From: Thermoanaerobaculia bacterium | Lineage (GTDB): Bacteria; Acidobacteriota; Thermoanaerobaculia; Gp7-AA8 | Length of the DNA: 64,000 bases | Assembly (NCBI GenBank): GCA_038244715.1 | Contig: JBBRTE010000015.1 | Span: forward strand, 38,956-102,955 | Direction: 5' to 3' | In this document: piece after piece, positions 4,367 to 58,697 of the stretch | Position numbering within the stretch: the first letter of the stretch is position 1 | Layout of the letters: each line of letters opens with the position of its first letter | Translations under genes and position numbers: made by a program | The notes under the pieces: generated by a model | Seen by the model: only the letters and a program-made list of their open reading frames with translations | What the model was told of the DNA's origin: nothing | The model's database searches: none

Positions 4367-6199
4367 TCAGCGGCCGCTGGCGATCGCCGGGGCCGGGCGC
4401 ATCTGGTCGTCGCGGTCGTTGTAGAAATTCACGAGGCCTTCGTAGATCGCGTCGGCGACGCGCTGGCGATACTTCTTCGTCTTGATGAGCGCACGATCGC
4501 GCTCGTTGCCGAGGTTGCAGATCTCGAGGAGGACGCGGGTGGGAACGAGGTTGTAGCGGATCACGGCAGGCACCCACTCGCGCCCATCGCGCACGACGTT
4601 GTCGCGCACAGGGTTGAAGGGGTGCACTTTCAGCTCGCTGCTGTCGAATGCGTCGAGGATCGACTCCGCCAGGTCGCGCGACAAGCCTTCGGCAGCGAGT
4701 GACTCTTTCTCCGAGTGGCGGACGACGGGGCTCTCGCGGACTTCGGCTCGCGCCAGATACACCTGCTCACTTTTTTCGTACGAGCCGGTCACGTAACGCT
4801 GCCCCGGGATGTACGCCATCGCTCCGCGCAGCGAAGGATGGAGCGAATCGGCGTGAATGGAGACGAAGACGACCTTCTCCCGCGCTACGTGTTGTTTCAT
4901 CGCACGATGAAAGATGGAGTTGGCCAGATACCAGCGCAGGTTCACGCCGACGGCCGGATCGCCGATGACGTACTTCGGTGAGGTCAGGACGATGTGGTCG
5001 GTCTGTTCTTCGAGCTCATCGCCGTCCGGAATGTCGTAGCCGGCCTGCTTTGACTTCGTCGTCGCCGCGACGGTGGCGCCCGATTTCTTCTCGAGAATGC
5101 GCTTCAGCCGGCACATCACGTCGTACACGTAGTTCGATTCCCAGACGCCGTCATGGGTGGCGCCGACGTCGCGCCCTCCGTGGCCGGCATCGAGGATGAC
5201 GCGAACGCCGGCAAGACCTTTCGCACGCGCGCGGACGGCGAGCTTCGCGCTCTCGCGCTTGACCTGCTCGTTCGCGACGCGGGTGGGATCGTCGGGCGGG
5301 AGGTACTCCGGCAGCAGCAGGGACATCGGAATCTTCACGCGATAACCAATCGGAATCCTGGCGACGTCGTCGATGCCGTTGAACGTCACGAGACGTTCGA
5401 GGACATCGCCGACGTCTTTCGAATAGACACGGCCGGTGAATCGAATCGCCACCGATGAATAGAGTGCTTCGCCTTTTTGCAGCCGATAGACGGCAAACGG
5501 CTCGGAGCCGCTCCGGTCGTACGTCAGCGACGGTTGGCCGGGGGCGGCCACGGCTTCAGGTATCGAAACTGCCGCAGCATGAGCATCCGCGCTCGTACGC
5601 TCTTCCGAATCGTCTTCCGATTTCCGAATCTCGGCTGTTTTCGGTGCATTCCGTTCCTCCATTTCGCCGCGGCGGAATGCCGTAGCGAGAAGCTCCTTCG
5701 GGATGAGGATCACGTCACCTTTGTGGGTCGAGAGTCCCTGCGCGGGATTGGCGGCGCGGATGGCGGAGTAGTTCTCGCCGCGTCCGGTAAACCACTCCGC
5801 GATGTTCCAGAGAGACTCGCCTTCGACACCACTGTTGCCGACGACGATGTGCTTCCATCCGCTGGCGGTCTCGCTGTCGGATGGGAAGAGTGTCGACGCC
5901 ACTTCGCGCTGAAGAATGGGCCGGAGAATATTGAACGGAATGTGGACGCGCTGCTCGGGCGTGAGATTGCCGCCGGAGTGGTTGAACGCGGCGATGTCGT
6001 TCCAGCGGTCGCCGTCGCCCGTCACGCGTTTGGCAAGACGGCTCCAGGCATCGCCTTCATGCGGAGTCACCACGACATCGATGGTGTACTCCGCGGTCAG
6101 CGACGCACGCAGCTCGGGCGTGATCACCTTCCAGGAGGTCGCGGCGACGAGCGCCGCCGGAAGAAGTGCTCCAACGAGCCCCACCCACCACTTACGCAC
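4367..6199 (-). CDS. N-acetylmuramoyl-L-alanine amidase (Amidase_3, AmiC-like) with N-terminal signal peptide and LysM-like region
   Basis: 610 aa. Signal-like N-terminus MRKWWVGLVGALLPAALVAA. C-terminal VILDAGHGGRDVGA...VFVSIHADS...LLEICNLGN matches the Amidase_3 catalytic domain. Confidence 0.8.
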   Translation of the reverse strand: MRKWWVGLVGALLPAALVAATSWKVITPELRASLTAEYTIDVVVTPHEGDAWSRLAKRVTGDGDRWNDIAAFNHSGGNLTPEQRVHIPFNILRPILQREVASTLFPSDSETASGWKHIVVGNSGVEGESLWNIAEWFTGRGENYSAIRAANPAQGLSTHKGDVILIPKELLATAFRRGEMEERNAPKTAEIRKSEDDSEERTSADAHAAAVSIPEAVAAPGQPSLTYDRSGSEPFAVYRLQKGEALYSSVAIRFTGRVYSKDVGDVLERLVTFNGIDDVARIPIGYRVKIPMSLLLPEYLPPDDPTRVANEQVKRESAKLAVRARAKGLAGVRVILDAGHGGRDVGATHDGVWESNYVYDVMCRLKRILEKKSGATVAATTKSKQAGYDIPDGDELEEQTDHIVLTSPKYVIGDPAVGVNLRWYLANSIFHRAMKQHVAREKVVFVSIHADSLHPSLRGAMAYIPGQRYVTGSYEKSEQVYLARAEVRESPVVRHSEKESLAAEGLSRDLAESILDAFDSSELKVHPFNPVRDNVVRDGREWVPAVIRYNLVPTRVLLEICNLGNERDRALIKTKKYRQRVADAIYEGLVNFYNDRDDQMRPAPAIASGR

Positions 6200-6261
6200 G
6201 CCCCAAAGTGTAGCACCGGAGGCGACGCACGTAGTCCGCTGACTGCCGCACGGCTCGAAGA

Positions 6262-7656
6262 TCAGGTCCCCAGCATCCGCGGGACCGCGCGCCAGTAACC
6301 CGTCTCTCTCTCGAAGTAGCTCGCCGCCCGGAAGAGAGCGCGTTCCGAAAATTGCGGCGCCATGATCTGCAGCGACAGAGGCAGCCCCTGGCGGGAAAAG
6401 CCCGAAGGGACGGCGATCGCCGGGATGCCGACCAGATTCGCCGGCGCCGTGAAGATGTCACTGAGGTACATCGACAACGGATCGTCCGTTTTCGCGCCGA
6501 TTGGGAACGCCGGCTCGGGCGTCGTCGGCGTCAGGAGAAAATCGAACCTCCCGAACACCGCGTCGAAATCCGCACGCAGCTTCGCGCGCACCGCCTGCGC
6601 TTGACCGTAGTACGCGTCGTAGTAGCCGGAAGAAAGTGCAAACGTCCCGAGCATGATGCGGCGCTTGACCTCGTCCCCGAATCCTTCGCCGCGCGATTCC
6701 AGATAGACCTCGTGCAATGTCTTCGCGCGCGCGCTGCGATGGCCGAATCGGACGCCGTCGAACCGGGAAAGGTTCGCGCTCGCCTCCGCGTTCGCGAGGA
6801 TGTAGTAGATAGCGATGGCGTAGCCGATCGTGGGGACACTGGCCTCTTCCACGATCGCCCCGCCGCTGCGCAGGACGGCGATCGCTGCGTCGAAGTTCGC
6901 GCGCATCTCCCCCTCCAGCTGACCGACAGCTTCCCGCACGACCCCGAAGCGAAGCCCGCGGACTCCGGAATCGAGATCGGCGGCGTAGTCGTCGATCGCG
7001 TGTGCCGATGATGTTGAGTCAAGAGGATCGTGACCGGCGATGAGGCCCAGGATCTCAGCGGACTCCCTGACGGTCTTCGACACGATGCCGATCTGGTCGA
7101 CGCTGGAGCCGAAGGCCACCAGCCCGTTCCTGCTCACACGGCCGTACGTGGGCTTGAGTCCCACGACCCCGCAGAGCGCAGCCGGCTGCCGGACCGAGCC
7201 GCCCGTCTCCGAGCCGAGAGCAATGGGAACCATGCGCGCGGCGACGGCCACCGCGGAGCCGCCTGACGAACCGCCCGGAACGCGGGTTGGATCCCACGGA
7301 TTGCGCGTCGGACCGAAAGCGGAGTGCTCCGTCGATGATCCCATCGCGAATTCGTCGAGATTGGTCTTTCCAACGATGCTGCATCCCGCCGCGCGCAGAC
7401 GGCCGACCGCCGTGGCGTCGAACGGCGACACGAACCGGCCGAGGATCCTGGACGCACACGTGGTCGGCATGCCGGTCGTGACAATGTTGTCCTTCACCCC
7501 GAGAGGCATCCCGTCTTCCGAGTCGCGCGCGACGTGAAGAAACGCGTTCAGAGACGGATTCAACCGATCGATGGCCGCGAGGGAGGCGGCCACCAGCTCC
7601 CGTCCACTCGCTGCCGCACGCGCCTCATGCCAGGGAAGGTGCAGGAGGTCAGTCAC
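6262..7656 (-). CDS. gatA: Glutamyl-tRNA(Gln) amidotransferase subunit A
   Basis: 464 aa with amidase signature GGSSGGSAVAVAARMVPIALGSETGGSVRQPAALCGVVGLKPTYGRVSR; followed by gatC with an 8-nt overlap. Confidence 0.9.
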   Translation of the reverse strand: MTDLLHLPWHEARAAASGRELVAASLAAIDRLNPSLNAFLHVARDSEDGMPLGVKDNIVTTGMPTTCASRILGRFVSPFDATAVGRLRAAGCSIVGKTNLDEFAMGSSTEHSAFGPTRNPWDPTRVPGGSSGGSAVAVAARMVPIALGSETGGSVRQPAALCGVVGLKPTYGRVSRNGLVAFGSSVDQIGIVSKTVRESAEILGLIAGHDPLDSTSSAHAIDDYAADLDSGVRGLRFGVVREAVGQLEGEMRANFDAAIAVLRSGGAIVEEASVPTIGYAIAIYYILANAEASANLSRFDGVRFGHRSARAKTLHEVYLESRGEGFGDEVKRRIMLGTFALSSGYYDAYYGQAQAVRAKLRADFDAVFGRFDFLLTPTTPEPAFPIGAKTDDPLSMYLSDIFTAPANLVGIPAIAVPSGFSRQGLPLSLQIMAPQFSERALFRAASYFERETGYWRAVPRMLGT

Positions 7657-7936
7657 CGATCACCTTCGGCACGATGAAATGTCCGTCGTCGCTGAACGCC
7701 GGGGCGTTGGCGGCCACGGCGCTGCGCGCGACCGTCGGACCAGGGACATCGTCTCGCAGCGGCGTGCCGGTCGCGGCTGGAATCACGTCGACGCCGCGCA
7801 CGTCGACTTCGCGGAGCTGATCGATGTACGAGAGGATTTTCGTCATCTCCTCCGCCATTCGTTCGAGTCCCGCTTCATCGAACTCGAGATGGGCCAGAGC
7901 AGCGACGCGTCGCGCTTCGTCGCGATCGATCTTCAT
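7649..7936 (-). CDS. gatC: Asp/Glu-tRNA amidotransferase subunit C
   Basis: 95 aa, MKIDRDEARRVAALAHLEFDEAGLERMAEEMTKILSYIDQL; GatC-like and immediately upstream of and overlapping gatA. Confidence 0.8.
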   Translation of the reverse strand: MKIDRDEARRVAALAHLEFDEAGLERMAEEMTKILSYIDQLREVDVRGVDVIPAATGTPLRDDVPGPTVARSAVAANAPAFSDDGHFIVPKVIGD

Positions 7937-7946
7937 CGCCGGGAGT

Positions 7947-9626
7947 CTATGCCAGGCGTGCGTTCAGCATGTCGAGGAAGCGCTGCGTCAGTTCCGGGTC
8001 GAACTGCGTTCCGGCTCCCTGGGCCATCTTGACCGCGGCCTGGTCGAGACTTTCCGGAGCGGCATAACTGTCCGAGGCGATCATCGTCTCGTAGACATCA
8101 CAGATCTGGACGAGGCGTGTCACCGCCGGGATGGCGGTGCCCATCAGGTTGTTCGGATAGCCGAGTCCATCCCACCGTTCGTGATGGTAGAGCACGGCCC
8201 GCGCGATTTCATGTCCGAGGAGCGGCTCCACGATGGCGGCACTCACGGCGGGATGTTCCCGCAGGATCGCCAGCTCATCGGGCGAGAGGTTCTCGCGCCT
8301 GTAGAGATTGTCGTAGTCGAGCAGCCGCATGCCGACGTCATGGATGAGGGCCACGATGCGCGCCGTCTCCGCCTCCACCGGACTCAGACGCACGAACCGC
8401 GCGAATGCCTCAACCCGTGACGCGACCGCCTCGGAATGCCGGCGCAATTCGGGGTACTTCGAGAAATCGGGTTCCAGAAGCGCCACGGCAATGTTGGAGC
8501 GAATCTGCTGGAGCGCACGGCGCGACAGGGAGCTCTCGATGGCTACCTGGAGCTGACGGTGAAACACCGAGAGCAGTTCGTGGACAGCGCGTTCGGGCGC
8601 CGCGATGAACACAACGGTGAGGTAGATCCCGCGCAGGGACACCGCGACAACCGGTGCCGTGAAGACCTTGTTGATCTGTTGCTCGCGGATCGGCACCTCT
8701 TCGACGCCGAGAGGGAGCACGACGTTGGTCTTCAACAACCCGCCCGGCTCGCCGCGCTTGGTGAGCCACAGATTCAGCTTGGACTGCAGGACATTCAGCG
8801 CGTCGTCGGTGAGGGTCGACCGCGCGGCCACCTCCTGCACGCCGCCCAGATGGCCGTACGCGGAGACCATGGCCACAACGGCGCCCGGAAGCAGGAGCAA
8901 CGCCCGCAACATTTCCCGGATCGTCGCCAGGTCCGACTCGTCGATCGACTGCGGCGCGGCCGGAGGGGCAATCTGCTCCGCGTTGCTGCGCGCTTCCAGG
9001 ATCAGCGACGGAAGCCGCGGCACATGACTGGCCGGCTGCCGCTCCACAGGCCAGAGCGATGGCTTCGCCTGCGCGATCGTTGGCGGCCTTGAGGCAGGAA
9101 CCTCAGGTCCGGCATCGGTGATAGGGACGCTGACCCCGAGCACGACGGCCTTTTCCGGCGCTTCGGAAAGCGTGATGAAGTGCTGTCCGAAAACGTTCTT
9201 CTTTCTGAATTGCTCGCCGATCCGGTCGGCGATTTTCTGCGCCTTCGGCAGGTCGGACACGTCGAACAAAACCTTGCCCTGTTTGTCGCGCATGTCGATC
9301 ACGCCGACCAGGTGACCACGCAGGTAGATCGGTGCGGCCATCAGCCGGTCGCTGGCCGATTCGAACATGACCAGAGAGAACCGGGGCTCCGCGTTCAGAC
9401 CGTTCACGAAGAACGGCGTCCGCCCGCGGCCGCAACGATCGATGATCGGATCCGTCCGGTCCGCCGACGTGCGGACCGCATTGCGGAAGCCGTACTCGGT
9501 GACGAGCTCGAAGCGGCCCTGCGCGTCAAGAAGATAGAGCGCAGCCTTCGTGGCGCGAATCTCCACGGCACAGTCGTAAAGGATCTCCTTCAGTTTTGAT
9601 TGAAGTTCCTGAACCTCGGGATGCAC
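7947..9626 (-). CDS. GAF-domain-containing HD-GYP phosphodiesterase (c-di-GMP signalling)
   Basis: 559 aa. N-terminal GAF-like region. C-terminal HDVGM...HHERWDGLGYP, the HD-GYP signature. Confidence 0.85.
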   Translation of the reverse strand: MHPEVQELQSKLKEILYDCAVEIRATKAALYLLDAQGRFELVTEYGFRNAVRTSADRTDPIIDRCGRGRTPFFVNGLNAEPRFSLVMFESASDRLMAAPIYLRGHLVGVIDMRDKQGKVLFDVSDLPKAQKIADRIGEQFRKKNVFGQHFITLSEAPEKAVVLGVSVPITDAGPEVPASRPPTIAQAKPSLWPVERQPASHVPRLPSLILEARSNAEQIAPPAAPQSIDESDLATIREMLRALLLLPGAVVAMVSAYGHLGGVQEVAARSTLTDDALNVLQSKLNLWLTKRGEPGGLLKTNVVLPLGVEEVPIREQQINKVFTAPVVAVSLRGIYLTVVFIAAPERAVHELLSVFHRQLQVAIESSLSRRALQQIRSNIAVALLEPDFSKYPELRRHSEAVASRVEAFARFVRLSPVEAETARIVALIHDVGMRLLDYDNLYRRENLSPDELAILREHPAVSAAIVEPLLGHEIARAVLYHHERWDGLGYPNNLMGTAIPAVTRLVQICDVYETMIASDSYAAPESLDQAAVKMAQGAGTQFDPELTQRFLDMLNARLA

Positions 9627-9697
9627 GAGGGGAGTTTAACCCGCCGCCGTGGCCGGGCTGAACTCCGACCCTGACTCGTGCCACGGCCCGTCAGACC

Positions 9698-9925
9698 TCA
9701 GGCTCGGAGTGCAGCGATCTTATCGAGGATTTCCCGTTCCGTCGGAAACCGCCCTTCGTCGCCTTTTGAGAAGATGATTTTCTGATCGACGGTGACGACG
9801 AAAATCCCGCCGCTTCCGCGCACGATCTCACTGTCGAGGTCATGCTCGCGTTTGATCTCGGCCGCCAGACTGGAGGCTCGGGGGAGATAGTTTCAAACGC
9901 CGCAGTAGTCGATTCGAATGTGCAT
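9698..9925 (-). CDS. selW: Selenoprotein W-like (Rdx family) protein with in-frame UGA (putative selenocysteine) in the CxxU motif
   Basis: Not in the ORF track. Reverse-strand ATG at 9925-9923, in-frame TGA at 9895-9893 (codon 11), stop TGA at 9700-9698. Translation MHIRIDYCGV-U-NYLPRASSLAAEIKREHDLDSEIVRGSGGIFVVTVDQKIIFSKGDEGRFPTEREILDKIAALRA (75 aa). Aligns along its length with SelW (VxYCGxUGY...GSGGxFEVxV...LIxSKK..GxF). High GC3 is maintained after the UGA. Confidence 0.7.
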
Positions 9926-9946
9926 TTGGATGATTGTCGGTGATGG

Positions 9947-10711
9947 CTACGTCGTCTTCACGAGAATGGCCGTCACGTTGTCCAGCCCGCCGCGCTCGTT
10001 GGCCGTGTCGATGAGATCGCGGCAGGCCTTCTCCAGGTCGTCCGCGCTCGCGGTCACGAGCTTGAGGATCTCCTCTTCGGGAACCATGCCCGTGAGACCG
10101 TCCGAGCAAAGGAGGTAGACGTCGCCCGGGCGGCTGTCGATCTCGGAAGCGTCGGGATTGACGGAGAGGGCACCTCCGAGGGCGCGGGTGATGACGTTGC
10201 GGAGGGGATGCTTCTCGGCTTCGGCCTCGGTCAGCATTCCGGCCTGCACCTGCTCGAAGACCCAGGAGTGATCGTTGGTGATGCGCGAGATCTTGCCGCT
10301 ACGGATCATGTAGGCGCGCGAGTCGCCGACGTGTGCCACGGACATCTTCCCGTCATCGGCCATGCAGGCGACGACGGTCGTGCCCATGCCGCGGAGCCGG
10401 GCATCCTTGCGCATGGCTTCGAGGACGCGGGTGTTGGCCATGCGCAGGGCGGCCATCAGCCGGTTCGTCGTCCGTGTGTAGTGCTCGTCGTAGGCGTGGG
10501 GCCAGGTTCCATCATCCTCTTTCGTGTGGACGATGAACTCGGAGATGGAGTCGACGGCGATGCGGGAAGCGATCTCGCCGGCAGCGTGCCCGCCCATTCC
10601 GTCGGCGACGAGGAATAGCTTCGCTTCGTCAGCGACGAGGAACGTATCCTCGTTGTGCTGACGCTGCCGTCCGACATCTGTGAGGCCGTATGCCTTCACG
10701 TCCATTCCCAC
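9947..10711 (-). CDS. PP2C-family Ser/Thr protein phosphatase
   Basis: 254 aa, LTDVGRQRQHNEDTF...LVADGMGGHAAGEIAS...LLCSDGLTGMV...GGLDNVTAILV; PP2C metal-binding motifs. Confidence 0.85.
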   Translation of the reverse strand: MGMDVKAYGLTDVGRQRQHNEDTFLVADEAKLFLVADGMGGHAAGEIASRIAVDSISEFIVHTKEDDGTWPHAYDEHYTRTTNRLMAALRMANTRVLEAMRKDARLRGMGTTVVACMADDGKMSVAHVGDSRAYMIRSGKISRITNDHSWVFEQVQAGMLTEAEAEKHPLRNVITRALGGALSVNPDASEIDSRPGDVYLLCSDGLTGMVPEEEILKLVTASADDLEKACRDLIDTANERGGLDNVTAILVKTT

Positions 10712-11368
10712 TCAGCCCTTTTTGAAAAGGGTAAACCCCTTTCCGCCTTCCTTGGCGTCACCACGCTGTCGCAATTCGGCCAGTGCCGTACGGATTTCAA
10801 TATTGTCTGCATCCCACTTTAACGCTTCATCGAGATATCTCTCCGCCTTTGCGGTGAGGCCGGCCCGTTTGCAGATTAACCCAGCCTCCTTGAGATATGC
10901 CCCATTCATCGGCTCACGCTGGACGGCGGTCTCGATCGCCTGGACTGCCTGGCGGGCATAGGCGGGGATACGCGAGGCGGCCATGGCGAGATAGTGGAAC
11001 CCCTTGGCGTCCGTCGGATTGTGCTTCGTGGCCATGTCGAAGTTCTCGTACGCACTGCGCAGGTCTCCCTCGCGGTACGCCTTGATCCCTTTCGACAGGT
11101 ACGCTTTGCCGATCTGGGCGGGATCGCTCGCGGCGACCCGCGCACCAGGCGCGGCGACGTCGGCGTCGTGCTGCTTCCGCCGGGCGGGATTCGTCAGCAC
11201 GTTGACCGCCTCGGTCAGCGTCTGGAACTTCCGCTCGGCCGCAGTCTTGTCCGTCCCCTTGTAGCGGTCCGGATGCTGTTCCCGGGCAAGTTTGCGGAAG
11301 CGGTCGCGAATCTCCTTCTCGGAGGCAGACCGATCGACTCCGAGCAGCTCGTAGTAGTTGACCTTCAT
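10712..11368 (-). CDS. J-domain (DnaJ-like) protein with TPR repeats
   Basis: 218 aa. MKVNYYELLGVDRSASEKEIRDRFRKLAREQHPDRY is a J domain with the HPD motif. TPR-like helical repeats follow. Confidence 0.75.
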   Translation of the reverse strand: MKVNYYELLGVDRSASEKEIRDRFRKLAREQHPDRYKGTDKTAAERKFQTLTEAVNVLTNPARRKQHDADVAAPGARVAASDPAQIGKAYLSKGIKAYREGDLRSAYENFDMATKHNPTDAKGFHYLAMAASRIPAYARQAVQAIETAVQREPMNGAYLKEAGLICKRAGLTAKAERYLDEALKWDADNIEIRTALAELRQRGDAKEGGKGFTLFKKG

Positions 11369-12460
11369 TCAGGATTTTTGACTTCTCTGGGTGTACATTT
11401 TCCGGGCGAGCGAGCGGACGGTTTCGCTCACACCTTTGTCGTCCTTGAGGCTTTTCAGATCGCGTAAGGTTAATCGATTGATCAGCGGCACGACAACCCC
11501 CACGGGGCACTTCGGGTTGCGGGCGAGAGCAATGACGAAGTTGTATTTGGAAACCCACTCCCGTTTCATGCCGATGAGGCGCAGGACCTCCTCGGAAACA
11601 TTCCGCATGGTGGCGATGAGCTCGGCTTCGGCCTCGCTCATGCGCGGATTGCGCATCACCGCGCTGCACACGAGTTTGTTGTGATCCCGGACGAGGATCA
11701 CCCGCTCGGTCTTGCCGCCCTTGAACGCCAGCTTCACCTTGTCGGCGACGCCCATCAACAGAATCTGCGAGAAGACCGACAGCTTCTTCTCATCCTGTTT
11801 TTCCGTCTCGAGGAGCTGCGGCAGGGGAGCGTCGCTCTGCGGCTCCTCCCTCGCCTTCTCCAACAGGTCGGCGATCGGCTCGTCCGACAGACTGAGCATC
11901 GGCTCGTCTTCGTCCACCTCTTCCGGTTGCAGCGCGGCGAGGCGAGACTTCTTGTCGAAGAACTCCTCGCGTGTCTCCAGAGCCCTTCGGCGAACGTCCG
12001 ACGAAAGATGCGGATTGGCGAGGAGAGCGTCGAGGATCGCGGGCGAACGGAGAATGCGCGCCTGGTTGATGACGACGACTTCCTGCACCGCAGCGTCGGC
12101 CACGGCGGCCAGTTCGGTCACCAGTTCGTCGGTCACAGCGCGGTTGCGAATGAGCGCTTCGAGGATGAATGGGTCCTGACTGGCGCGCAGGAGCAGCGCC
12201 AGATGAGCCGGCGGCGCACTCTCATTGCCGGCGAACGCGTGGATATTGCGCGCCGGAACGTCGGCCAGCGATACCCGGGCTGCCGCCGAGATCTCCTCAT
12301 CCTGCCACGCGGTCAGATACGAGAAGACCGCGATCAGGTCGTCCTGAGGAAGCGGCAACAACCCGCGCGCGATCGTCTCGACGAGAGTGCGGGGCAATTG
12401 TCCCGTCTCGATCCGCTCGATGATCACATCGGCGGAGAGCTCGGCTGTAGAAGTGCTCAT
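11369..12460 (-). CDS. Hypothetical protein (helical repeat protein, no family recognised)
   Basis: 363 aa ORF with good coding character (high GC3, no internal low-complexity junk); abuts the DnaJ-like gene with no gap. Confidence 0.55.
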   Translation of the reverse strand: MSTSTAELSADVIIERIETGQLPRTLVETIARGLLPLPQDDLIAVFSYLTAWQDEEISAAARVSLADVPARNIHAFAGNESAPPAHLALLLRASQDPFILEALIRNRAVTDELVTELAAVADAAVQEVVVINQARILRSPAILDALLANPHLSSDVRRRALETREEFFDKKSRLAALQPEEVDEDEPMLSLSDEPIADLLEKAREEPQSDAPLPQLLETEKQDEKKLSVFSQILLMGVADKVKLAFKGGKTERVILVRDHNKLVCSAVMRNPRMSEAEAELIATMRNVSEEVLRLIGMKREWVSKYNFVIALARNPKCPVGVVVPLINRLTLRDLKSLKDDKGVSETVRSLARKMYTQRSQKS

Positions 12461-13350
12461 CGCGGGCTGGAGGGTTGAGTCGTTGCGTCGGTTTGCATCT
12501 TCTGCAGAAAGGCCCGATCGATCACGACGTCGTGAACTACCTGGCCGTCCTGGCCCAGGGAGGGCATCGGCAGATCGTTCAGTGTCATGGTCAGGCCGGC
12601 TGCATTGCCAATCGTTCGAAAGCGAAAGCTGTCCTTCGCATCGATCGTACGATGGTACCCGCGCCGAAGCTCGTCATTGACGACCTTCTCCCCATCCGCG
12701 TCGAGGATCAGCCAGGTCTTTTCCGTAACCTCGATGCTCAGAACCAGTTTCGCCGGAGTCCCTGTCTGAGGTTGCGTCGCAGTTGCGGACAGCGGCACCG
12801 CTACGGGCGCCGCGACCACGGGCGATGACGCCGTCGTCGTCGGGACGCGGGCTTCGACTGCGTTGCGCTCATCCGCGGCACGCGTCTCGCGCCGGTGCTT
12901 CAGGGCCCAGTAACTGACACCCGCCAACGCGATGACGACCAAGATGAGGATGTAGACATTCCGATCGACGCGGGCATACGCGGGAGGGATCCCTCTGACC
13001 GACGGATTTTTGCGCGGCAGAGGAGGAGCCTGCGGCGTGGTCAAGCGCTCGAGATGGGATGACTGCTCGATGCGATCATCTCCCACGGCGGCAAAGTTGT
13101 AGCGGTTGACCATCTCCTCCGCGTTCAACCCGAGGTATCGGGCGTACTCGCGAACGAAGCCGCGGGTGAAGACGGGAGCCGGCAGCGTCTTGTGGTCGTT
13201 GCGCTCGATTGCCTCCAGAAACCGCTTGCTGATCTTCGTGGAGTCCGCGATCTCCTTCAGAGAGATCCCGCGGATCTCGCGCTCGCGGCGCAGTTCATCG
13301 CCAAATGACGCGAGCTCCGACGATTGAGGCTGGGGATCCTGATCAGGCAT
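12457..13350 (-). CDS. rodZ: RodZ-like cytoskeleton protein (N-terminal Xre-type HTH, TM segment, C-terminal DUF4115-like domain)
   Basis: 297 aa. FGDELRREREIRGISLKEIADSTKISKRFLEAIE is an HTH. A hydrophobic segment VYILILVVIALAGVSYWAL follows, then a Pro/Thr-rich linker and a C-terminal domain. This is RodZ architecture. Confidence 0.6.
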   Translation of the reverse strand: MPDQDPQPQSSELASFGDELRREREIRGISLKEIADSTKISKRFLEAIERNDHKTLPAPVFTRGFVREYARYLGLNAEEMVNRYNFAAVGDDRIEQSSHLERLTTPQAPPLPRKNPSVRGIPPAYARVDRNVYILILVVIALAGVSYWALKHRRETRAADERNAVEARVPTTTASSPVVAAPVAVPLSATATQPQTGTPAKLVLSIEVTEKTWLILDADGEKVVNDELRRGYHRTIDAKDSFRFRTIGNAAGLTMTLNDLPMPSLGQDGQVVHDVVIDRAFLQKMQTDATTQPSSPR

Positions 13351-13370
13351 GGGACTGGTGGCCGACCATT

Positions 13371-14123
13371 CTAGTCAATTCGACCTCCGGTCGTCGTGAA
13401 AACGCCGGGCTCGATCCGCTCCACGCAACGACGCAGGTACGTCGAAGTCGCCGGGTGGTCATGAATGGTGCGCAGGTCCCGCAGTGTAAGAAACCGCAGT
13501 TGCGATGCCGCCGCGGAGCGCGGGGTCGAAGGATTCATCACCAACGCCCTGCGGATTGCATAGCGAAAGGACCATTTCCGGTCCCACGCCAGCAGCTGCA
13601 GCTTCTCCTCCGAGGCCTTTTCGGAGACTGCGAGAACCAGGAGATCCTCCTCGCGCAGAAGCTGGTTGTTCAGCAGGGCGCCGAAAACGCGGGGATCGGG
13701 GTCGAAGAGGAGCACCCGGATCAGCGCGGTGCTGCAGCGCTTGGCCGCGGTGATCTTCTCACCGAGGGAGAGCTTGTCGATCCGCAGGAGGAGCTGATTC
13801 TCGATCGCGTGGCGGACCTGGGCGGGAACTTTGACGTCGACCGACAAACGCAACAAGTCGGGCCAGAAGAGGTAGTGAACCAGCTTGACCGAGTGCACCA
13901 GAGGGGTGGCCCGGTTCTGCACGAGGCGCAGACGTACCCCGTAAAACGCAGCGAGATGTCTGCTCCGGGCAATGGTCTGACACATGTCCGGTGTGACATA
14001 GGGATTCTCCAGGATGGCGTGCGCTTCTTCCTGGACGAGCGACGCGCCGTTCTCCGCCAGAAACCGCGAAAGCTCGTCGCGCGAAAAGTTGCGGATTCGC
14101 TTGTAATCGGGAAAAGGTTGCAT
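13371..14123 (-). CDS. Hypothetical protein
   Basis: 250 aa, protein-like composition; the overlapping plus-strand 416-aa ORF is Arg-rich junk. Confidence 0.5.
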   Translation of the reverse strand: MQPFPDYKRIRNFSRDELSRFLAENGASLVQEEAHAILENPYVTPDMCQTIARSRHLAAFYGVRLRLVQNRATPLVHSVKLVHYLFWPDLLRLSVDVKVPAQVRHAIENQLLLRIDKLSLGEKITAAKRCSTALIRVLLFDPDPRVFGALLNNQLLREEDLLVLAVSEKASEEKLQLLAWDRKWSFRYAIRRALVMNPSTPRSAAASQLRFLTLRDLRTIHDHPATSTYLRRCVERIEPGVFTTTGGRID

Positions 14124-23290: not shown

Positions 23291-25030
23291 TTACGAGCGC
23301 GCGCTCGTGTCATCCGGCTGCCGAGGATTCGTCGTCGCCCCAGCCACCGCGATCAGCAGACAGAGTCCCATCAAGATCATTGCCCGATGGCGGAACAGCG
23401 TTCCGAAATTACTGATCGTAAAGCACAGCAGCAGCATGATCGTGGGCGTCATCACCGCCACGAGCCAGAACGATCCGTTCCGGAGCACTCCCCGCGACAG
23501 GCCACGAAAAACGTAGTAGGCCGCGGCAATGAGCAGGAAATCGAACACGAGAGTGTCGATCTCCACGATGGCCCACAGCCCACGCCCTCCACCAATGTGG
23601 ATGAGACCGAGCCACTCTCCGATCATATGGGGCAGGACAACTGCCGCGACACCGGCCACGATTCGCGCGACCGTCGAGCGCGGCATCCCCGGGACGCCGG
23701 AAGCCGGAGAACGCGAGGCTCTGCGTTTTGCAACAGTCCCAGCCGGCCTGGCCACAACCACTGGTGCGGGTGCCGGCGACTTGGACGTGGCAGCGGTGGG
23801 TGCGGGTGCCGGCGACTTGGACGTGGCAACAGTGGGTGCGGGTGGCGGAATCGCGCTGTTTTTCCCGGCGCCAGGTCCGCCCGCAGCAGCCGTTCTGACG
23901 GTTCGAGGCGGCTCCCGCGCGATCGCTTCATGGGTGAGCGAGGGCGCCTGCGACGCGCCGGGAGATTCCGTCACCGGCTTCGAATCGGAGTCTCCGTCAC
24001 CCGGCATCGCCGCCGGACCCGCTCCGCCCTCGGACGGGTCGATCCGCCGAAGGGTGCTGCCTTCCTGGATCATCGAATTGCCATGCGAGGCGTCGAATCC
24101 CGCTCGCGTCCGCAGTAAGGCAGTGGTCAGCGGCTCGGTCGTCGTAATGGTCCGCGCGCCGAGCAATCTCGCGACTTGGGGCGGGACATAGGGTCGACCC
24201 GCAAAAAGAATAACCTGAGAGAGCGCAACAAATACCGCGGCGTTGCACACTCCGGCTGCCAGGCGACGATCGCTTCGCCAGGCAGCGATGACAAAGAACG
24301 GTGCCGACGCGAACCATAGGATCAGCCCGAAATACCAACGAACGCCGACCACGGAATAGAGGACCACCGCCATCAGCAGCAGTGGCACGACGAACCGGGC
24401 CAACGGCTGACGGAGCCCGATCCACGCGTCCTGCCACATCGCGGACGCAGCCACAAACGCGGCAACCGCGAAGATGAAGAAGGGATCCTTGAGAGGCTGT
24501 GCAGACCAGAGGATCACCGCGGGAGCGAAACTCAACGCCCCTGCCGCGACGAGCGCGGATGGTCGGATGAGTCCGTCTTCCGTGCGACCCAGCCGGAGAA
24601 TCGCGGCACAGGCGCCCAGATACGCGAAGAGATTCAGGAACGCGCCGACTGCTGCTGCGCCCCCGAAGAGGAGGATGAAAACCGCGAGAACCTGCAGAAA
24701 GGCGGGGGAAGGCAGGGTCTTATCAACGAGCACCACAGCCTTCCAACCCTGTGTCAGGAGGCCCTGGGACATCACGAAGTAGAGATGGCCATCGATGGCC
24801 AGGTTCCAGAAGCCTTCCCCATCCTGAAGAGGCCGCGCAATGGGAAGGTGCAGGTAAGAAATCCAGAACATCGCCTGCGCCATGAACGCCCGGGCCACGA
24901 GACCGATCCCGATCAGCAACCCGGCACGAGCACTCCACGCCGCGAGCCGGCGCCAGATCATCCACAGCAGCCATCCCGCCCCAAACGTGAGGAACACCTG
25001 GATTGAGGCTAGGAGAAATAACCAGGGCAT
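23291..25030 (-). CDS. Polytopic membrane protein of unknown function with internal Pro/Thr-rich repeat linker
   Basis: 579 aa with multiple TM helices at both ends and a central soluble Pro/Ala/Thr/Ser-rich region containing PAPAPTVATSKSPAPAPTAATSKSPAPAP, which is encoded by a 36-bp tandem repeat. Confidence 0.55.
   Translation of the reverse strand: MPWLFLLASIQVFLTFGAGWLLWMIWRRLAAWSARAGLLIGIGLVARAFMAQAMFWISYLHLPIARPLQDGEGFWNLAIDGHLYFVMSQGLLTQGWKAVVLVDKTLPSPAFLQVLAVFILLFGGAAAVGAFLNLFAYLGACAAILRLGRTEDGLIRPSALVAAGALSFAPAVILWSAQPLKDPFFIFAVAAFVAASAMWQDAWIGLRQPLARFVVPLLLMAVVLYSVVGVRWYFGLILWFASAPFFVIAAWRSDRRLAAGVCNAAVFVALSQVILFAGRPYVPPQVARLLGARTITTTEPLTTALLRTRAGFDASHGNSMIQEGSTLRRIDPSEGGAGPAAMPGDGDSDSKPVTESPGASQAPSLTHEAIAREPPRTVRTAAAGGPGAGKNSAIPPPAPTVATSKSPAPAPTAATSKSPAPAPVVVARPAGTVAKRRASRSPASGVPGMPRSTVARIVAGVAAVVLPHMIGEWLGLIHIGGGRGLWAIVEIDTLVFDFLLIAAAYYVFRGLSRGVLRNGSFWLVAVMTPTIMLLLCFTISNFGTLFRHRAMILMGLCLLIAVAGATTNPRQPDDTSARS
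23765..23847. repeat. In-frame 36-bp tandem repeat (2.3 copies) inside the membrane-protein gene
   Basis: gcgggtgccggcgacttggacgtggcagcggtgggt at 23765-23800, repeated at 23801-23836 with 2 mismatches, then an 11-nt partial copy. Confidence 0.8.
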
Positions 25031-25122
25031 GGAAGTCGTGAGTCTATCGGTCGTATCCAGGAATCGTCAAAGCGCCATACGGACGTGAACATCGCGTAAG
25101 GGGCCCATCAGCGCGACGCAAT

Positions 25123-26394
25123 TCAGCGGGCAGCCACTGTACCAGAGTCCCCAAACGCAGAACGCCGCGTCGCCCGAACGACGACGAATCCGAAGACTAG
25201 CAGCGACGTCAACTCGGCCGCTGCAAGCGCACCCACCAGTCCCCATAACCCGAACCAGCGGATCAACAGGAACTGATACACGAGCGCGAGAGCAAGCGTC
25301 AGGACGGAGAGCCGGGCGGTCAGCGACTCGTATCGCATCGCCTGCAGGAGCACGCCAGCCAGGGTCGTACCGACGGTGATGTAGGCCGTCGCCGCATAGG
25401 CGATCACCAGAGGCATCGACTGAGGCGGGATGTGAAGAGCCGACGCGACGAAATGGCGCGCCAGGAAGAGTGCGGCGGCAGCCACCGTCAAGGCCAGCAG
25501 CGACAATCCGAGTGAATCGCGAACCACTCTGCCGAGACGACGGCGGTCCCGTTCGGCCGCGGCCACGGTGAGCGCCGGATAATTCAGCAGCGCGATCGAC
25601 AGCGGAAACAGCAGAAGAATATTCTGCAGCGCTGACGCCGCGCCGACGAGTCCGAGGTCCTGCCGTCGATAGTGCTCGACGACAAAAACGGACAGGCGCG
25701 AATAGACAACACCCAGGATCGCCTGAATGCTGAATGGCCACAGACCGGCAGCCGTCGGCATCAGATGACGGAATGCCGCCCGGTAGAGGTCCCGCCGTCC
25801 GTGCATCATCACCACCGCTTCCGCAACGCGGCCGATGACGTACGCGACGACGACGCTATGAGGACCCGGCGCAAAGCGTTGTGCAACAAACGCGAGTATG
25901 AGGAACATCGCCAGTCCGACAGTCACGGCGACACCGATGCCGCCGATCTCGCGCGTCACGATCCGGTCGCTGACACCATTCAGGCTGTAGATCGTGATCG
26001 GGCACAAAAGGCCGAGTTCGAGCGCGAACCGGATCGCCTCCGCGGGGAGGGCATGCGTAATGGCGAGCAACCCGGTCGTCAGGAGGAACAACAACGCAAG
26101 CATCAAACGGAGTGCATTGGCCGTTGCCGCAGGAGCGACACTCCCGCCCGGCGATGCGCGCACCAGGGCAAGCTCGCGCGGCAGCCAGCGCGTGCAACCC
26201 CAGTCGGTGACGATCAGGCCGACCGCGACGAAGGAGCTGGCGAAGGTATATCCGGCGAGCGCCGCCAATCCCCAGCGATGGGCGATGTAAAGCCCGATCA
26301 GAATCGGCATCCCTCCCGAGAGGCCGCGGAACGCCACGACTGGGAAGACGTGCAACAGTCGTGTGAAGCGCCTCAACTGGTCTAGGCCAGTCAC
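25123..26394 (-). CDS. wzx: Polysaccharide flippase (Wzx-like, MOP superfamily)
   Basis: ORF 25123..26697 trimmed to the GTG at 26394 that overlaps the upstream stop (GTGA). ~12 TM helices, VTGLDQLRRFTRLLHVFPVVAF..., typical Wzx-like topology. Confidence 0.7.
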   Translation of the reverse strand: MTGLDQLRRFTRLLHVFPVVAFRGLSGGMPILIGLYIAHRWGLAALAGYTFASSFVAVGLIVTDWGCTRWLPRELALVRASPGGSVAPAATANALRLMLALLFLLTTGLLAITHALPAEAIRFALELGLLCPITIYSLNGVSDRIVTREIGGIGVAVTVGLAMFLILAFVAQRFAPGPHSVVVAYVIGRVAEAVVMMHGRRDLYRAAFRHLMPTAAGLWPFSIQAILGVVYSRLSVFVVEHYRRQDLGLVGAASALQNILLLFPLSIALLNYPALTVAAAERDRRRLGRVVRDSLGLSLLALTVAAAALFLARHFVASALHIPPQSMPLVIAYAATAYITVGTTLAGVLLQAMRYESLTARLSVLTLALALVYQFLLIRWFGLWGLVGALAAAELTSLLVFGFVVVRATRRSAFGDSGTVAAR

Positions 26395-27578
26395 GCGGTC
26401 ACCGTTCGTCGGCGGCCCGCCGCCTCGAGCAACACGGCGGAGATTCCTTTGGCAAACCCCGCGACGGAGTAGTGCTCGACCGCATAACGCCGGCCGGCAT
26501 CGGCCATGAGGCGTCGTTCGCCGGAATCGCGCAGCAATCGTTCGAGAGCGGATCTCCATTCCTCGGGCGTGGTGGCCTGCAGATGGGTGACGCCCGCGAT
26601 TCCGATCTCGCGGACGATCCCGACGGGGCTGGCGACGCACGCGACCCCGGCTGCGAAATACTGAATGATCTTCAGTCCTGATTTCCCGCGCGACCACGAA
26701 TCGTCCGGGAGCGGGTAGATGCCCACATCGATCGTCTGGAAGTCGTGCACCTCACGGTCGAGGCGCCACGGCAGCAACTCGACGTCGACACCGCGCACGG
26801 CCAGGGAGGGCCGGCCCGATCCGACGACTTTCAACCGAAACGGAACCGATTGCGCGAGCGTTTCGAGCAGAGGCAGCAGCGGCTCGACATAGCGCCACGT
26901 ACTGTGCGTGCCCACCCAGCCGACGACCGGTACGTCGTGGGGAGCATCCGTTCGAGGCGTGACCGATGCCGTGTCGACGATCGTGGGCATGATCACGGCG
27001 CGCGCGCCGAGGGACTGGACATGATCGGCAATCACCTGGTTCCCGCAGATCACGGTATCGGCCCAGCGAATCAATTGATCCGTCTTGGAGGGCCACTTCA
27101 GCAGCGTGGCCAACCGGCCGTAGACAGGGCTCGTCACCGCGATCCATGTGGCATCGTCGAGGTCGAGCACGATCGGAACGCGCGCGACCCTCGATGCCAG
27201 CCATTCGATCCAGGGAGGTCCGAAGAGCATGACTTCCCGCTGCACCAGGAGGACATCCGCGCGCAGGATCCGCGGTAGTTGAAGGATCCGGCGCAGAAGC
27301 GAGACGCAAACACGGAACGAGGTCACCACCGCCTTCTTCGGATCGTAGAGATCGCGGAATGTCGCATCGGTGAGAAATGGGAAAAAGGTTACGCGGAGAC
27401 CGCCCGAGGCGAGGTGGGGCAGGAACTGGACGATGCGGAATCGGGTGGCGGCAGCGCCGAGCGGAAATGTCGATAGCGCAACGACATCGACGGATTTCCC
27501 CTCTGGCTCACTCCTCACGGCGCCCTCAACCGATAGGCGGGAAGTGCGATTCCTGGACCTGAATTTTCCAAAACCCAA
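26391..27578 (-). CDS. Glycosyltransferase family 4
   Basis: 395 aa; the track start codon is TTG. C-terminal LKIIQYFAAGVACVASPVGIVREIGIAGVTHLQATTPEEW is a GT4 donor-binding region. Confidence 0.7.
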   Translation of the reverse strand: MGFGKFRSRNRTSRLSVEGAVRSEPEGKSVDVVALSTFPLGAAATRFRIVQFLPHLASGGLRVTFFPFLTDATFRDLYDPKKAVVTSFRVCVSLLRRILQLPRILRADVLLVQREVMLFGPPWIEWLASRVARVPIVLDLDDATWIAVTSPVYGRLATLLKWPSKTDQLIRWADTVICGNQVIADHVQSLGARAVIMPTIVDTASVTPRTDAPHDVPVVGWVGTHSTWRYVEPLLPLLETLAQSVPFRLKVVGSGRPSLAVRGVDVELLPWRLDREVHDFQTIDVGIYPLPDDSWSRGKSGLKIIQYFAAGVACVASPVGIVREIGIAGVTHLQATTPEEWRSALERLLRDSGERRLMADAGRRYAVEHYSVAGFAKGISAVLLEAAGRRRTVTA

Positions 27579-27689
27579 CGATCTAAAAAATCGCGAGAAG
27601 TGTGTTCCAGGTCACGGCTGCTGGTGACATAATGGCGGACATTGCCGGCATCCAACCCGGTAACCACCAACAAACGAGGAGGCAGGACT

Positions 27690-28625
27690 ATGCAAACCAC
27701 AAGGTTGCGTTTGGGGCTTATTGCCCTTGTTATCCTGGTCACCGCGCTCGCAGCGCAGGGTCAGGCAACCCGCACTTGGGTATCCGGCGTCGGCGACGAC
27801 GTCAACCCGTGCAGCCGCACGGCACCGTGCAAAACATGGGCAGGTGCCATTTCGAAGACCGCCAGTGGCGGCATCATCGATGCGCTTGATCCAGGTGGGT
27901 TCGGAGCCCTGACCATCACGAAGCCGATGACCCTCGAAGGGAACGGCACGCTGGCCAGCACTCTCCACTCGGGAGTCAATGGCATCATCGTCAACATCAC
28001 CTCGGGCACGAACCGCAACGTCGTTCTGCGGAACATCCTCATCGATGGCAGCGGCATCACGATCGGCACGAACGGCGTCCGTTTCATCGCTGGCGACTCG
28101 CTCCTGGTCGAGGGCTGTTCCATCCATACAGACTCAGCGACCGGAATCGACTTCGAGAACGATCTCGGCATCGGCCAGCTGATCGTCCGAAATACCGTGA
28201 TCACGTCGACGACGACCGGCATCCTGATCAAGCCGCAGGCCGCTGCAAGCGCCGCTCGCGCGTCCATTCAGGATTCGCTCATCTCGGGATGCACTACAGG
28301 CATCCGAGCGGAAGACAAGGCCAACGTCAACGTCTACCAGAGCCGCGTTTCGGGGAACACCGATGGCGTTCTCTCCTTCGCAGCCGGCGGGATCGGCACA
28401 GTCGTGACGGTGAACAACTCCCAGATCGCTGGCAACAGTGGTTCGGGGTTGAAGACGCAGGGTGGCAATTCGTTCCTGCGCGTTTCCGCATCGACCATCA
28501 CCGGCAACGGTCTCGGTCTCGACCACGCGGCCGGCGGAGTACTGGAGTCCTACGTGAACAACGTGCTTTCGGGGAACACCACGAATGGCACGTTCACAGG
28601 CAACGCAGTTCCCGGCCTGCAGTAA
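27690..28625 (+). CDS. Secreted right-handed parallel beta-helix repeat protein (possible polysaccharide lyase/hydrolase)
   Basis: ORF 27642..28625 trimmed to ATG 27690, which is preceded by a GGAGG RBS. Signal peptide MQTTRLRLGLIALVILVTALAAQGQA. Periodic G/N/T/I-rich repeats (IIVNITSGTNRNVVLRNILIDGSGITIGTNGV...) typical of pectate-lyase-fold proteins. Confidence 0.75.
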   Translation: MQTTRLRLGLIALVILVTALAAQGQATRTWVSGVGDDVNPCSRTAPCKTWAGAISKTASGGIIDALDPGGFGALTITKPMTLEGNGTLASTLHSGVNGIIVNITSGTNRNVVLRNILIDGSGITIGTNGVRFIAGDSLLVEGCSIHTDSATGIDFENDLGIGQLIVRNTVITSTTTGILIKPQAAASAARASIQDSLISGCTTGIRAEDKANVNVYQSRVSGNTDGVLSFAAGGIGTVVTVNNSQIAGNSGSGLKTQGGNSFLRVSASTITGNGLGLDHAAGGVLESYVNNVLSGNTTNGTFTGNAVPGLQ

Positions 28626-44731: not shown

Positions 44732-44826
44732 GGGCGCGAACCGCCCCGATCGGACAAGGGGCGTTCAGCGAACAACGTAGCCGACTGACAAGACCTCTTC
44801 TCCGGTTTCGAGAATGAGGTTTTTTG
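44732..44826 (+). promoter_or_regulatory. Putative his attenuator: alternative GGGGCG/CGCCCC hairpins plus terminator hairpin with U-tract
   Basis: GGGGCG(44732-37) / CGCCCC(44743-48) / GGGGCG(44759-64) can pair alternately. Terminator CCTCTTCTC-cggtttc-GAGAaTGAGG (44794-44819) is followed by TTTTTT (44820-25). The GAGG of the 3' stem doubles as the RBS for the hisZ ATG at 44832. Confidence 0.5.
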
Positions 44827-44831
44827 ACTTT

Positions 44832-45716
44832 ATGGCCGCGAAATCGAGATACCCCACTGGTGTTCATCCGCTGCTGGTCGAAGAGACCGCGCGGCGGAGG
44901 CGCATCGAAGCCCGCTTCGTCGACACCTTCGAGAAGGCGAGCTTCTCGGAAGTGATCCTGCCCATCATCGACTACGTGGAGCCGTACGCGCCGCTGGTCG
45001 ACAGCGCGGCGGCGAAGCAGAGTTATCGGTTCATCGATCGGGAAGGCGACCTGGTCGCCATCCGTGCCGACTTCACGCCGATGCTCGCACGTGCCCTCTC
45101 CCCCACCCTCGACGCGGGCACGCTCCCGCTCCGCCTCTTCTACCGCGGTGACGTCATCCGCGTGGAAGCGTCACGCCTCGGCACGAACAGGGAGTTGTTC
45201 CAGATTGGCGCGGAGATCGTCGGCGACGACTCGATCGATGCGGACGTGGCGATGCTCCATCTCGCCGCCGAGCTCGGGCGTACCGACGAAAGCGAGCCCG
45301 CGGTGGTCTACAACGATGTCTCCATCGCCACGTCGCTGATCGCACAATCCGACGCCGTCCGCGAAGCACTGGCCGCCAAGCGGATGACCGCGGGCGTTCC
45401 TGCCGCGCTGCGGACCATCGTGGCGAAGCTCATCTCCGGCGAGGCCACGATCGATGACGTCGCGCCGTTCGCACCGGAGGCGGCGGCCAGGCTCTGCGCG
45501 ATCGGCGATGCGCTCGCCAGCGATTCTCTCTTTTCCCTGCACCTCGACGACATCGACGGGAGCGCCGGCTATTACACCGGCCTCCGCTTTCGCGTCTACG
45601 CAGGCCGCGCTCGAGCAAAGGTCGCTCAGGGCGGACGCTACGACACTCTCTACGAACGCTTCGGCCAGCGCGCCGCGGCCATCGGATTCACCTTCACTCT
45701 CGACGACCTGGATTGA
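44832..45716 (+). CDS. hisZ: ATP phosphoribosyltransferase regulatory subunit
   Basis: Class II aaRS-like HisZ (FRYERPQ-type region present as FRVYAGRARAKVAQGGRYD). The track start at 44814 lies inside the terminator stem, so the ATG at 44832 is preferred. Confidence 0.8.
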   Translation: MAAKSRYPTGVHPLLVEETARRRRIEARFVDTFEKASFSEVILPIIDYVEPYAPLVDSAAAKQSYRFIDREGDLVAIRADFTPMLARALSPTLDAGTLPLRLFYRGDVIRVEASRLGTNRELFQIGAEIVGDDSIDADVAMLHLAAELGRTDESEPAVVYNDVSIATSLIAQSDAVREALAAKRMTAGVPAALRTIVAKLISGEATIDDVAPFAPEAAARLCAIGDALASDSLFSLHLDDIDGSAGYYTGLRFRVYAGRARAKVAQGGRYDTLYERFGQRAAAIGFTFTLDDLD

Positions 45717-45721
45717 ACGAC

Positions 45722-46333: not shown

Positions 46334-46428
46334 GTGCCACGGCGGCGGGGTCGCCCGGTTTCGTGATCGCGCGATTGCGGCCTGTTCGCTAAGGCAAATC
46401 TGGTCTCCCATCCAGAGTGCAGCCGCCG

Positions 46429-46583
46429 ATCGTGAGGTCCTTCGCCCCCGCGCGAGCGGGGGAGAAGGTGGCCGAAGGCCGGATGAGGGGGCTCTGATCG
46501 GCGCGCAATGCCACGCCCCTCACCCGCACTCCGCTTCGCTCCGTGTCTCCCTCTCCCCGCTGTCGCGGGGCGAGGGTTGCTCG
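46429..46583. repeat. REP-like palindromic intergenic element, copy 1 (~155 bp)
   Basis: Near-identical to 46723-46877 (2 mismatches). Contains the palindromes CCCCCGCGCGAGCGGGGG and CCCCGCTGTCGCGGGG. Confidence 0.7.
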
Positions 46584-46722
46584 CGCTCAAACAGCGGGCC
46601 GGGGTTGCCTTCGACGACGTTTGGGCGTCGTCCCTTCCTGGACCAGGGAGATGCTCTGAATCGCAAGGGCTCGACGGCGGTTGAGCCTGATCGCTCGATC
46701 CATCAAGGTCTACAGGCTCTGA

Positions 46723-58692: not shown

Positions 58693-58697
58693 TGCGA

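Follow-up and report, generated by a model that had tools for sequence, protein, structure and literature searches.

We report here that a 64 kb stretch of Thermoanaerobaculia DNA (the window, by which we mean the whole of the stretch analysed) very probably contains a functional selenoprotein gene, whose 75-residue product belongs to the SelW-like (Rdx) family and in which an in-frame UGA encodes selenocysteine. The gene occupies positions 9698–9925 of the minus strand and consists of 75 codons plus a stop, running from an ATG at 9925–9923 to a terminal TGA at 9700–9698. Read from 9925 to 9698, its translation is MHIRIDYCGV-TGA-NYLPRASSLAAEIKREHDLDSEIVRGSGGIFVVTVDQKIIFSKGDEGRFPTEREILDKIAALRA-TGA. 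The single internal TGA, codon 11 (9893–9895, minus strand), lies in the motif C-G-V-U and is assigned as a putative selenocysteine codon on the basis of its conservation and of alignment to Rdx structures; the first residue of this CxxU redox motif is Cys8 (codon TGC, 9902–9904, minus strand). A preliminary description of this DNA had claimed that a 75-codon reverse-strand gene, reading through the TGA at 9895–9893 and lying between a PP2C phosphatase gene and a GAF/HD-GYP gene, is invisible to stop-codon-based ORF calling. Our translation of 9698–9925 is identical to the one given there, both neighbours were named correctly as judged by Pfam, and a mechanical ORF list holds in the same frame just a 41-aa GTG-initiated fragment (9698–9823).

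Membership of the SelW/Rdx family had likewise been proposed, and it was borne out by profile searches in which the U of the query was replaced by C and which gave scores above the curated cut-offs of both Pfam and NCBIfam. The Pfam family Rdx (PF10262) was matched with E = 3.8e-17 and 62.7 bits against a cut-off of 22.6, NCBIfam TIGR02174 ('CXXU_selWTH') with 50.8 bits against 34.2, and NF041051 ('SelT/SelW/SelH family (seleno)protein') with 89.8 bits, marginally above its cut-off of 88. Matches among solved structures all have the Rdx fold; they include SAV_2001 (3DEX, E = 8e-9), Atu0228 (2FA8, E = 2.8e-8), MIEN1 (2LJK), mouse SelW (2NPB) and others, and are full-length for the PDB Rdx proteins. 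The UGA had been placed at the conserved Sec position of the family, and this agrees with the alignments to 3DEX and 2FA8, in which it coincides exactly with the second Cys of the YCTQC motif and Cys8 with the first; a Cys is aligned at the UGA position in the distant Cys homologues 3DEX, 2FA8, 2OKA, 2OBK and 2P0G. The fold was modelled on a proxy, P0001, which is the closest full-length database homologue and is 71% identical to the window protein. Its AlphaFold model has a pLDDT of 91.4 and superimposes on 2FA8 with a TM score of 0.90 and an rmsd of 1.1 Å; thioredoxins appear only among the distant matches in the structure comparison. Judged from this proxy, the window protein is predicted to have a thioredoxin-like beta-alpha-beta-beta-beta-alpha fold. 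Strand beta1 spans residues 3–8 and helix alpha1 residues 14–28 of the model, so that residues 8–11 would lie in the beta1-alpha1 loop and the CxxU motif (C8-G-V-U11) would directly follow the first beta-strand. The beta1-alpha1 loop is the usual site of a thioredoxin-type redox motif.

The UGA is conserved in relatives of the gene far beyond the class from which the window comes. Searches of a genome collection with peptide patterns, one of them ASSLAAEI, yielded 56 loci, mostly from Thermoanaerobaculia but also from Vicinamibacterales, Pirellulaceae, Gemmatimonadota, Betaproteobacteria, Zixibacteria and Eisenbacteria. Codon 11 is TGA in 55 of these 56 loci, with the reading frame and the start codon kept, and the TGA-bearing loci span Acidobacteriota, Planctomycetota, Gemmatimonadota, Betaproteobacteria and Zixibacteria; Cys8 is invariant in all 56 sequences. 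For a census without the bias of these peptide patterns, metagenome contigs were scanned with a pattern in which the conserved codons on either side and the core of the hairpin described below were fixed and the codon at the Sec position was left free, and every one of the 120 matches returned had TGA at that position. These counts and the E value of the Rdx match exceed chance by far. Cys in close relatives, or an alignment breaking at the UGA, had been named beforehand as observations that would speak against the gene; neither was seen in the 56 genome and 120 metagenome loci, and TGY was found at the Sec position in none of these 176 loci. This fits the published observation that, in organisms that use Sec, Cys homologues of SelW-like selenoproteins are few or absent (PMC1794560). 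Coding character on both sides of the UGA, another earlier claim, is seen in the codon-position entropies of 163 distinct sequences, which are 0.87/0.77/1.31 (positions 1/2/3) for codons 2–10 and 1.07/0.84/1.43 for codons 23–70. The substitution pattern upstream of the TGA thus matches that of the downstream part, indicating that the upstream codons are translated.

A few database entries and loci depart from this pattern at the Sec position. On a Vicinamibacterales chromosome (OZ219745.1, L046:5001-5216), a 9-nt in-frame deletion removes GTTGAAAGT, the Sec TGA included, from a gene that is otherwise ~95% identical to three TGA-keeping relatives; either the active-site Sec has been lost in this lineage or the assembly is at fault. 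AGA (Arg) stands at the Sec position in two full-length homologues, P0001 (L057:1075-1302, codon 1105-1107), the protein that served as our structural proxy, and in P0013 (L058:875-1093, codon 905-907). The two belong to different SelW-like subgroups and to different ENA assemblies (ERZ27285802, ERZ27315235), and the SECIS hairpin is intact in both. In the PP2C gene adjacent to the former, AGA is used for none of 17 Arg codons. The variant was met in 2 of ~146 protein clusters and in 0 of 176 DNA loci. SECIS-directed Sec insertion has been documented at non-UGA codons, sense codons included (PMC10778597), and acidobacterial tRNASec-like allo-tRNAs with AGA/AGG anticodons have been described (PMC5389517), and in view of these precedents the AGA variants could, on thin evidence, be natural cases of SECIS-directed recoding or could simply be rare mutations. 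A 'W' at the Sec position of P0016 goes back to a JGI entry in which both TGAs were translated as Trp under another genetic code; the DNA has TGA.

A SECIS-like hairpin had been expected a short distance past the UGA, and a hairpin of this type is present in the predicted place. It spans 9860–9878 of the minus strand, reads A-GCC-U-CCA-[GUC]-UGG-C-GGC-C, and was identified through an RNAalifold consensus, covariation and constraint at synonymous sites. The apical loop GUC lies at 9870–9868, 22 nt past the UGA. Within the stem, U 9874 and C 9864 stand opposite each other without pairing; at its outer end (9878/9860), 50 of 55 distinct sequences have a standard pair where the window has A.C. Unprompted, RNAalifold returned the same architecture: a GUY loop on 3 bp, which a U/C mismatch separates from another 4 bp farther out. 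Paired cells make up 98.7% of the consensus structure, compared with 14–43% when the partners are slid by 1–3 columns. Covariation is seen at two pairs (GC30/AU16/GU2/CG1/UA1 and CG50/UA5), each of which involves synonymous third-codon positions. Codons 17–22, GCY UCC AGU YUG GCR GC, are near-invariant with their synonymous sites included: in the genome set, where the search had left the synonymous choice unconstrained, third-position entropy is 0–0.43 bit at codons 17–21 compared with ~1.2–1.9 at other four-fold degenerate codons. The Ser codon AGT is invariant inside the hairpin, though it accounts for only 5.9% of the window's Ser codons, and the hairpin core occurs a single time in the 64 kb window.

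The predicted hairpin fits the published bacterial SECIS model (PMC13188914). This model asks for an apical loop of 3–9 nt and an upper stem of 4–16 bp (its Fig. [quoted passage not shown] The loop here can be read as GUC (3–5 nt), or as A-GUC-U fitting N1-G-[G|U]-N-N2; the stem counts 6 bp in the window, one fewer than the 7 bp of most relatives, and the spacing is 22 nt. The region from the UGA to +51 has an MFE of -10.5 kcal/mol, within the threshold, and the bare hairpin reaches -7.2 kcal/mol in the window, slightly short of it; among the relatives the bare hairpin has a median of -8.2 and lies at or below -7.5 in 47 of 56 sequences. The folding z-score of the 71-nt region is moderate (-1.93). 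At gathering thresholds, a search of the whole window with Rfam gave no match, neither to the hairpin nor to a tRNA-Sec. Lower helices around the UGA, which appeared in the single-sequence MFE fold, were rejected as parts of the conserved element, being 60–65% paired in relatives. The UGA at 9893–9895 can also pair with a UCA at 9853–9855, which straddles the Ile24 and Lys25 codons; this pairing (columns 7–9 with 47–49 of alignment A1) is possible in 47–55 of 55 distinct sequences and recalls the fdhF SECIS, in whose fold the UGA belongs to the stem region. As the columns concerned are also fixed by the amino acids encoded, no conclusion is drawn from it; conservation in the remainder of this lower helix is poor.

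Among known elements, the hairpin may be compared with the minimal SelB-binding SECIS hairpin of Escherichia coli fdhF, GGU-U-GCA-GGUC-UGC-ACC, the fdhF SECIS sequence having been verified in >5,400 E. coli genomes. Both lie directly downstream of the UGA within the coding region, and both have 3 bp, an unpaired 5' U, another 3 bp closed by A-U, and a loop that contains G-U-C. The folds differ, (((.(((....)))))) for fdhF and (((.(((...))).))) for the window hairpin: the window loop has 3 nt (GUC) where that of fdhF has 4 (GGUC), and the unpaired U faces an unpaired C in a 1x1 internal loop in the window, whereas in fdhF it forms a bulge. In addition, the G-U of the window loop lies at nt 26–27 counted from the U of the UGA, one codon farther than in fdhF (23–24), and the lower stem enclosing the UGA lacks comparative support in the SelW-like set. 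The loop G-U is invariant and the unpaired U is found three pairs below the loop; binding of a SelB to the window hairpin is a prediction.

We also looked for the machinery that would be needed to decode the UGA. Pfam searches revealed no SelA, SelB or SelD domains among the 50 predicted proteins of the window, and a tRNA search with ARAGORN came out empty for the window and for loci L001–L056; run on 180 sequences (the window and the retrieved loci), ARAGORN gave 3 tRNAs, none of them for Sec. A tblastn search with E. coli SelD as query over 1.13 Mb (again the window and the retrieved loci) gave no match. With no Sec machinery in these sequences, we infer the ability of the organism to decode Sec from the conserved unit of UGA and SECIS. 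A GC3-based scan of the window for other TGA-interrupted genes produced 32 candidates, which resembled off-frame noise and none of which had a redox motif; the scan also missed the SelW-like gene, because the upstream part of the gene lies under its GC3 threshold, and it is therefore uninformative.

That the UGA is read with the help of the hairpin as Cys or another standard amino acid rather than as Sec seems to us very unlikely. Such a reading could be the work of a tRNASec-like Cys-tRNA (selC*/SelB* type) or of near-cognate suppression, at least when selenium is limiting, and it has its precedents: at the Sec UGA of selD, Cys can be inserted by selC*, a tRNACys whose anticodon is UCA, and tRNASec-like allo-tRNAs exist in Acidobacteria (PMC5389517). 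The outcome of the machinery search over 1.13 Mb would be in line with it as well. However, selC* is known from Firmicutes, Thermodesulfobacteria, Nitrospirae and Proteobacteria and not from Acidobacteria (PMC5389517); if Cys were equally good at this position, TGY would be expected among the 176 loci, and none is seen; and the hairpin conforms to the SECIS model of the SelB type. Insertion of Cys in the selC* manner, known from other phyla, has no positive support at the SelW-like locus. A reassigned code, with TGA read as Trp or Gly, was considered and rejected: TGA is the commonest stop in the window and ends 29 of the 53 predicted genes, the SelW-like gene included, from which it follows that it is not reassigned in this organism.

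This same frequency of TGA as a stop might be held in favour of the idea that the TGA at codon 11 is a true stop, so that the locus would be a decaying pseudogene or would yield only a C-terminal fragment from an internal start; public annotations do call 'Rdx family protein' fragments of 41–68 aa that start past the TGA, and the missing Sec machinery in the window and the retrieved loci (1.13 Mb) would be in keeping with it. We nevertheless give this idea even less credence than a reading as Cys, since the ten upstream codons, Cys8 included, are in frame and keep a coding pattern in more than 160 distinct sequences from several phyla. Moreover, the first in-frame start past the TGA in the window is the GTG that leaves 41 aa, a fragment which, judged from the P0001 model, would be without beta1, the redox motif and helix alpha1, and the constraint on the hairpin at the RNA level would be left unexplained. 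Finally, it had been pointed out that resequencing might turn the TGA into TGC or TGT. Single-base errors are known in metagenome assemblies, though nothing specific to this locus suggests one, and the same TGA recurs in 175 independently assembled loci with no TGY at the site, which excludes a sequencing or assembly error for practical purposes and makes it the least probable of the explanations considered.

Taking the UGA to encode selenocysteine, we propose the following course of events. Translation would begin at the ATG at 9925, on a transcript probably shared with the upstream PP2C gene and possibly in coupling with PP2C translation. At the UGA at 9895–9893 the ribosome would not terminate; instead, a SelB-type elongation factor carrying Sec-tRNASec would bind the hairpin at 9878–9860, whose apical G-U lies 22–24 nt past the UGA, and deliver selenocysteine, after which translation would run on to the ordinary TGA stop at 9700–9698. 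In the product, the C8-G-V-U11 motif would occupy the beta1-alpha1 loop. The protein would most likely work as a thiol/selenol oxidoreductase, with a Cys8-Sec11 selenenylsulfide formed and resolved in each cycle. The function of bacterial SelW-like proteins has been described as unclear, probably redox (PMC1088965).

The gene lies in a conserved neighbourhood. Directly upstream on the minus strand is a gene for a PP2C-type Ser/Thr phosphatase (9947–10711; Pfam PP2C_2 and PP2C), and directly downstream one for a protein with GAF and HD_5 domains of HD-GYP type (7947–9626, minus strand; Pfam HD_5, HD and GAF). The GAF/HD-GYP protein is of the c-di-GMP phosphodiesterase type. PP2C adjoins the SelW-like gene upstream in 24 of 26 Thermoanaerobaculia loci (L001–L026), and the GAF/HD-GYP gene follows it in 18 related loci; the gene order in L001–L026 is RodZ-like HTH, unknown, DnaJ-domain, PP2C, SelW-like, GAF/HD-GYP, GatC and GatA. 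This synteny is conserved across Thermoanaerobaculia and is lost in other phyla with the same selenoprotein. In the window, 4367–14123 of the minus strand form a long co-directional cluster from the RodZ-like HTH gene through GatA to amidase_3. The PP2C gene shares strand and frame with the SelW-like gene, and its stop (9949–9947) precedes the SelW-like ATG by 21 nt; the distance between the PP2C stop and the SelW-like start varies from ~3 to 70 nt by locus. No Shine-Dalgarno sequence was found ahead of the SelW-like ATG in the window, and none is evident in most of the loci. The short spacing and the missing Shine-Dalgarno sequence suggest that the PP2C and SelW-like genes are co-transcribed and perhaps translationally coupled.

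Any functional link between the SelW-like gene and its neighbours is speculative. It is conceivable, if rather unlikely, that in Thermoanaerobaculia the SelW-like protein goes beyond the role of a free-standing antioxidant and serves as the selenium-dependent redox module of a conserved signalling cassette composed of PP2C, SelW-like and GAF/HD-GYP proteins. In such a cassette the SelW-like protein would be co-translated with the phosphatase and would switch the activity of a neighbour by selenenylsulfide exchange, in a loose parallel to mammalian SELENOW, which binds signalling partners in a redox-dependent way.

Two further features of the window may be recorded here. A 4-kb block at 24001–28000 has an AT skew of +0.259, compared with an absolute value of <=0.09 everywhere else; it lies in a polysaccharide-biosynthesis region and overlaps long minus-strand ORFs (23291–25030 and 25123–26697) that have no Pfam match. 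A 1775-aa ORF at 55891–61218 of the minus strand is matched by Pfam only in its C-terminal Ig-like domains (Ig_7 'CHU_C associated' and Ig_3), its N-terminal ~1,500 residues being without a match, and its product is probably a large secreted or surface protein. The regions 14162–43331 and 44814–52430 hold ordinary housekeeping genes, namely an exopolysaccharide/O-antigen-type cluster (Wzy_C, glycosyltransferases, epimerases, asparagine synthase and a DegT aminotransferase), tyrS, and a histidine-biosynthesis operon comprising hisZ-like, hisG, hisC-like and hisH genes, a fused two-domain His_biosynth gene (hisA/hisF type) and hisIE.

Bacterial SelW-like/Rdx selenoproteins have been known for about twenty years, and a specialist will find the window gene unsurprising. 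With 48 genes, SelW-like proteins outnumbered every other selenoprotein family in the Sargasso Sea data (PMC1088965), and they have been recorded among the selenoproteins of Geobacter, Desulfotalea, Symbiobacterium and others; Acidobacteria were credited with selenoproteins already in 2006 (PMC1794560). In a 2026 review, the entry 'SELENOW-like protein, PF10262, CxxU' stands below the heading 'predicted with high confidence', which sets it off from the families named before that heading (PMC13188914), and many homologues have already been labelled 'selT/selW/selH-like putative selenoprotein' by JGI. The proteins described in the surveys of Kryukov, Zhang and Gladyshev (PF10262/TIGR02174/NF041051; PMC1088965, PMC1794560) resemble the window protein in their length of ~75 aa and their N-terminal CxxU, in a Sec-UGA followed by a SECIS within the coding region, and in having few or no close Cys homologues. 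There is no essential difference; what sets the window gene apart is its conserved PP2C/HD-GYP neighbourhood and its host lineage, Thermoanaerobaculia (Acidobacteriota), which is absent from the selenoprotein literature searched, our search having found no paper that ties this class to selenocysteine. Since the family is known and all of its testable properties were found in the window gene, we regard the gene as a new, unannotated member of a known family.

More distant relatives share the fold. The Cys-type bacterial Rdx proteins (Atu0228 2FA8, SAV_2001 3DEX, 2OBK, 2OKA, 2OJL and 2P0G) have the same thioredoxin-like fold, superimpose on the P0001 proxy model with TM scores of 0.88–0.92 and rmsd values of 1.0–1.7 Å, and carry the redox motif in the same place. 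In contrast to the window protein, they have CxxC and not CxxU, are 30–38% identical and ~20–30 residues longer, and need no recoding. Mammalian selenoprotein W (SELENOW, 2NPB) and MIEN1 (2LJK) belong to the Rdx family and share its fold, and SELENOW has CxxU at the same position as the window gene, but they are remote from the window protein (E = 0.005, 20% identity). In eukaryotes, the SECIS is located in the 3' UTR and differs in structure from the bacterial one (PMC13188914).

Stop-codon-based gene callers miss or truncate the SelW-like gene, so that databases hold fragments without the active site. The 'Rdx family protein' entries P0012, P0014, P0019, P0055, P0098, P0082 and P0085 are truncated in this way to 41–68 aa; they begin past the TGA (MPRASSLAAEI..., MAAEIK..., VRGSGG...) and are without beta1 and the CxxU motif. 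One of them, P0014, corresponds to L004:5001-5216.

While the SelW-like gene leaves the current understanding of selenoprotein biology unchanged, it provides a clean comparative case of a coding-region SECIS, with a core that is invariant across phyla and covariation at synonymous sites, and the set of SelW-like hairpins could seed a bacterial SECIS covariance model. Recognition of the full gene adds one more selenoprotein to a poorly studied acidobacterial class and implies that these organisms use selenium.
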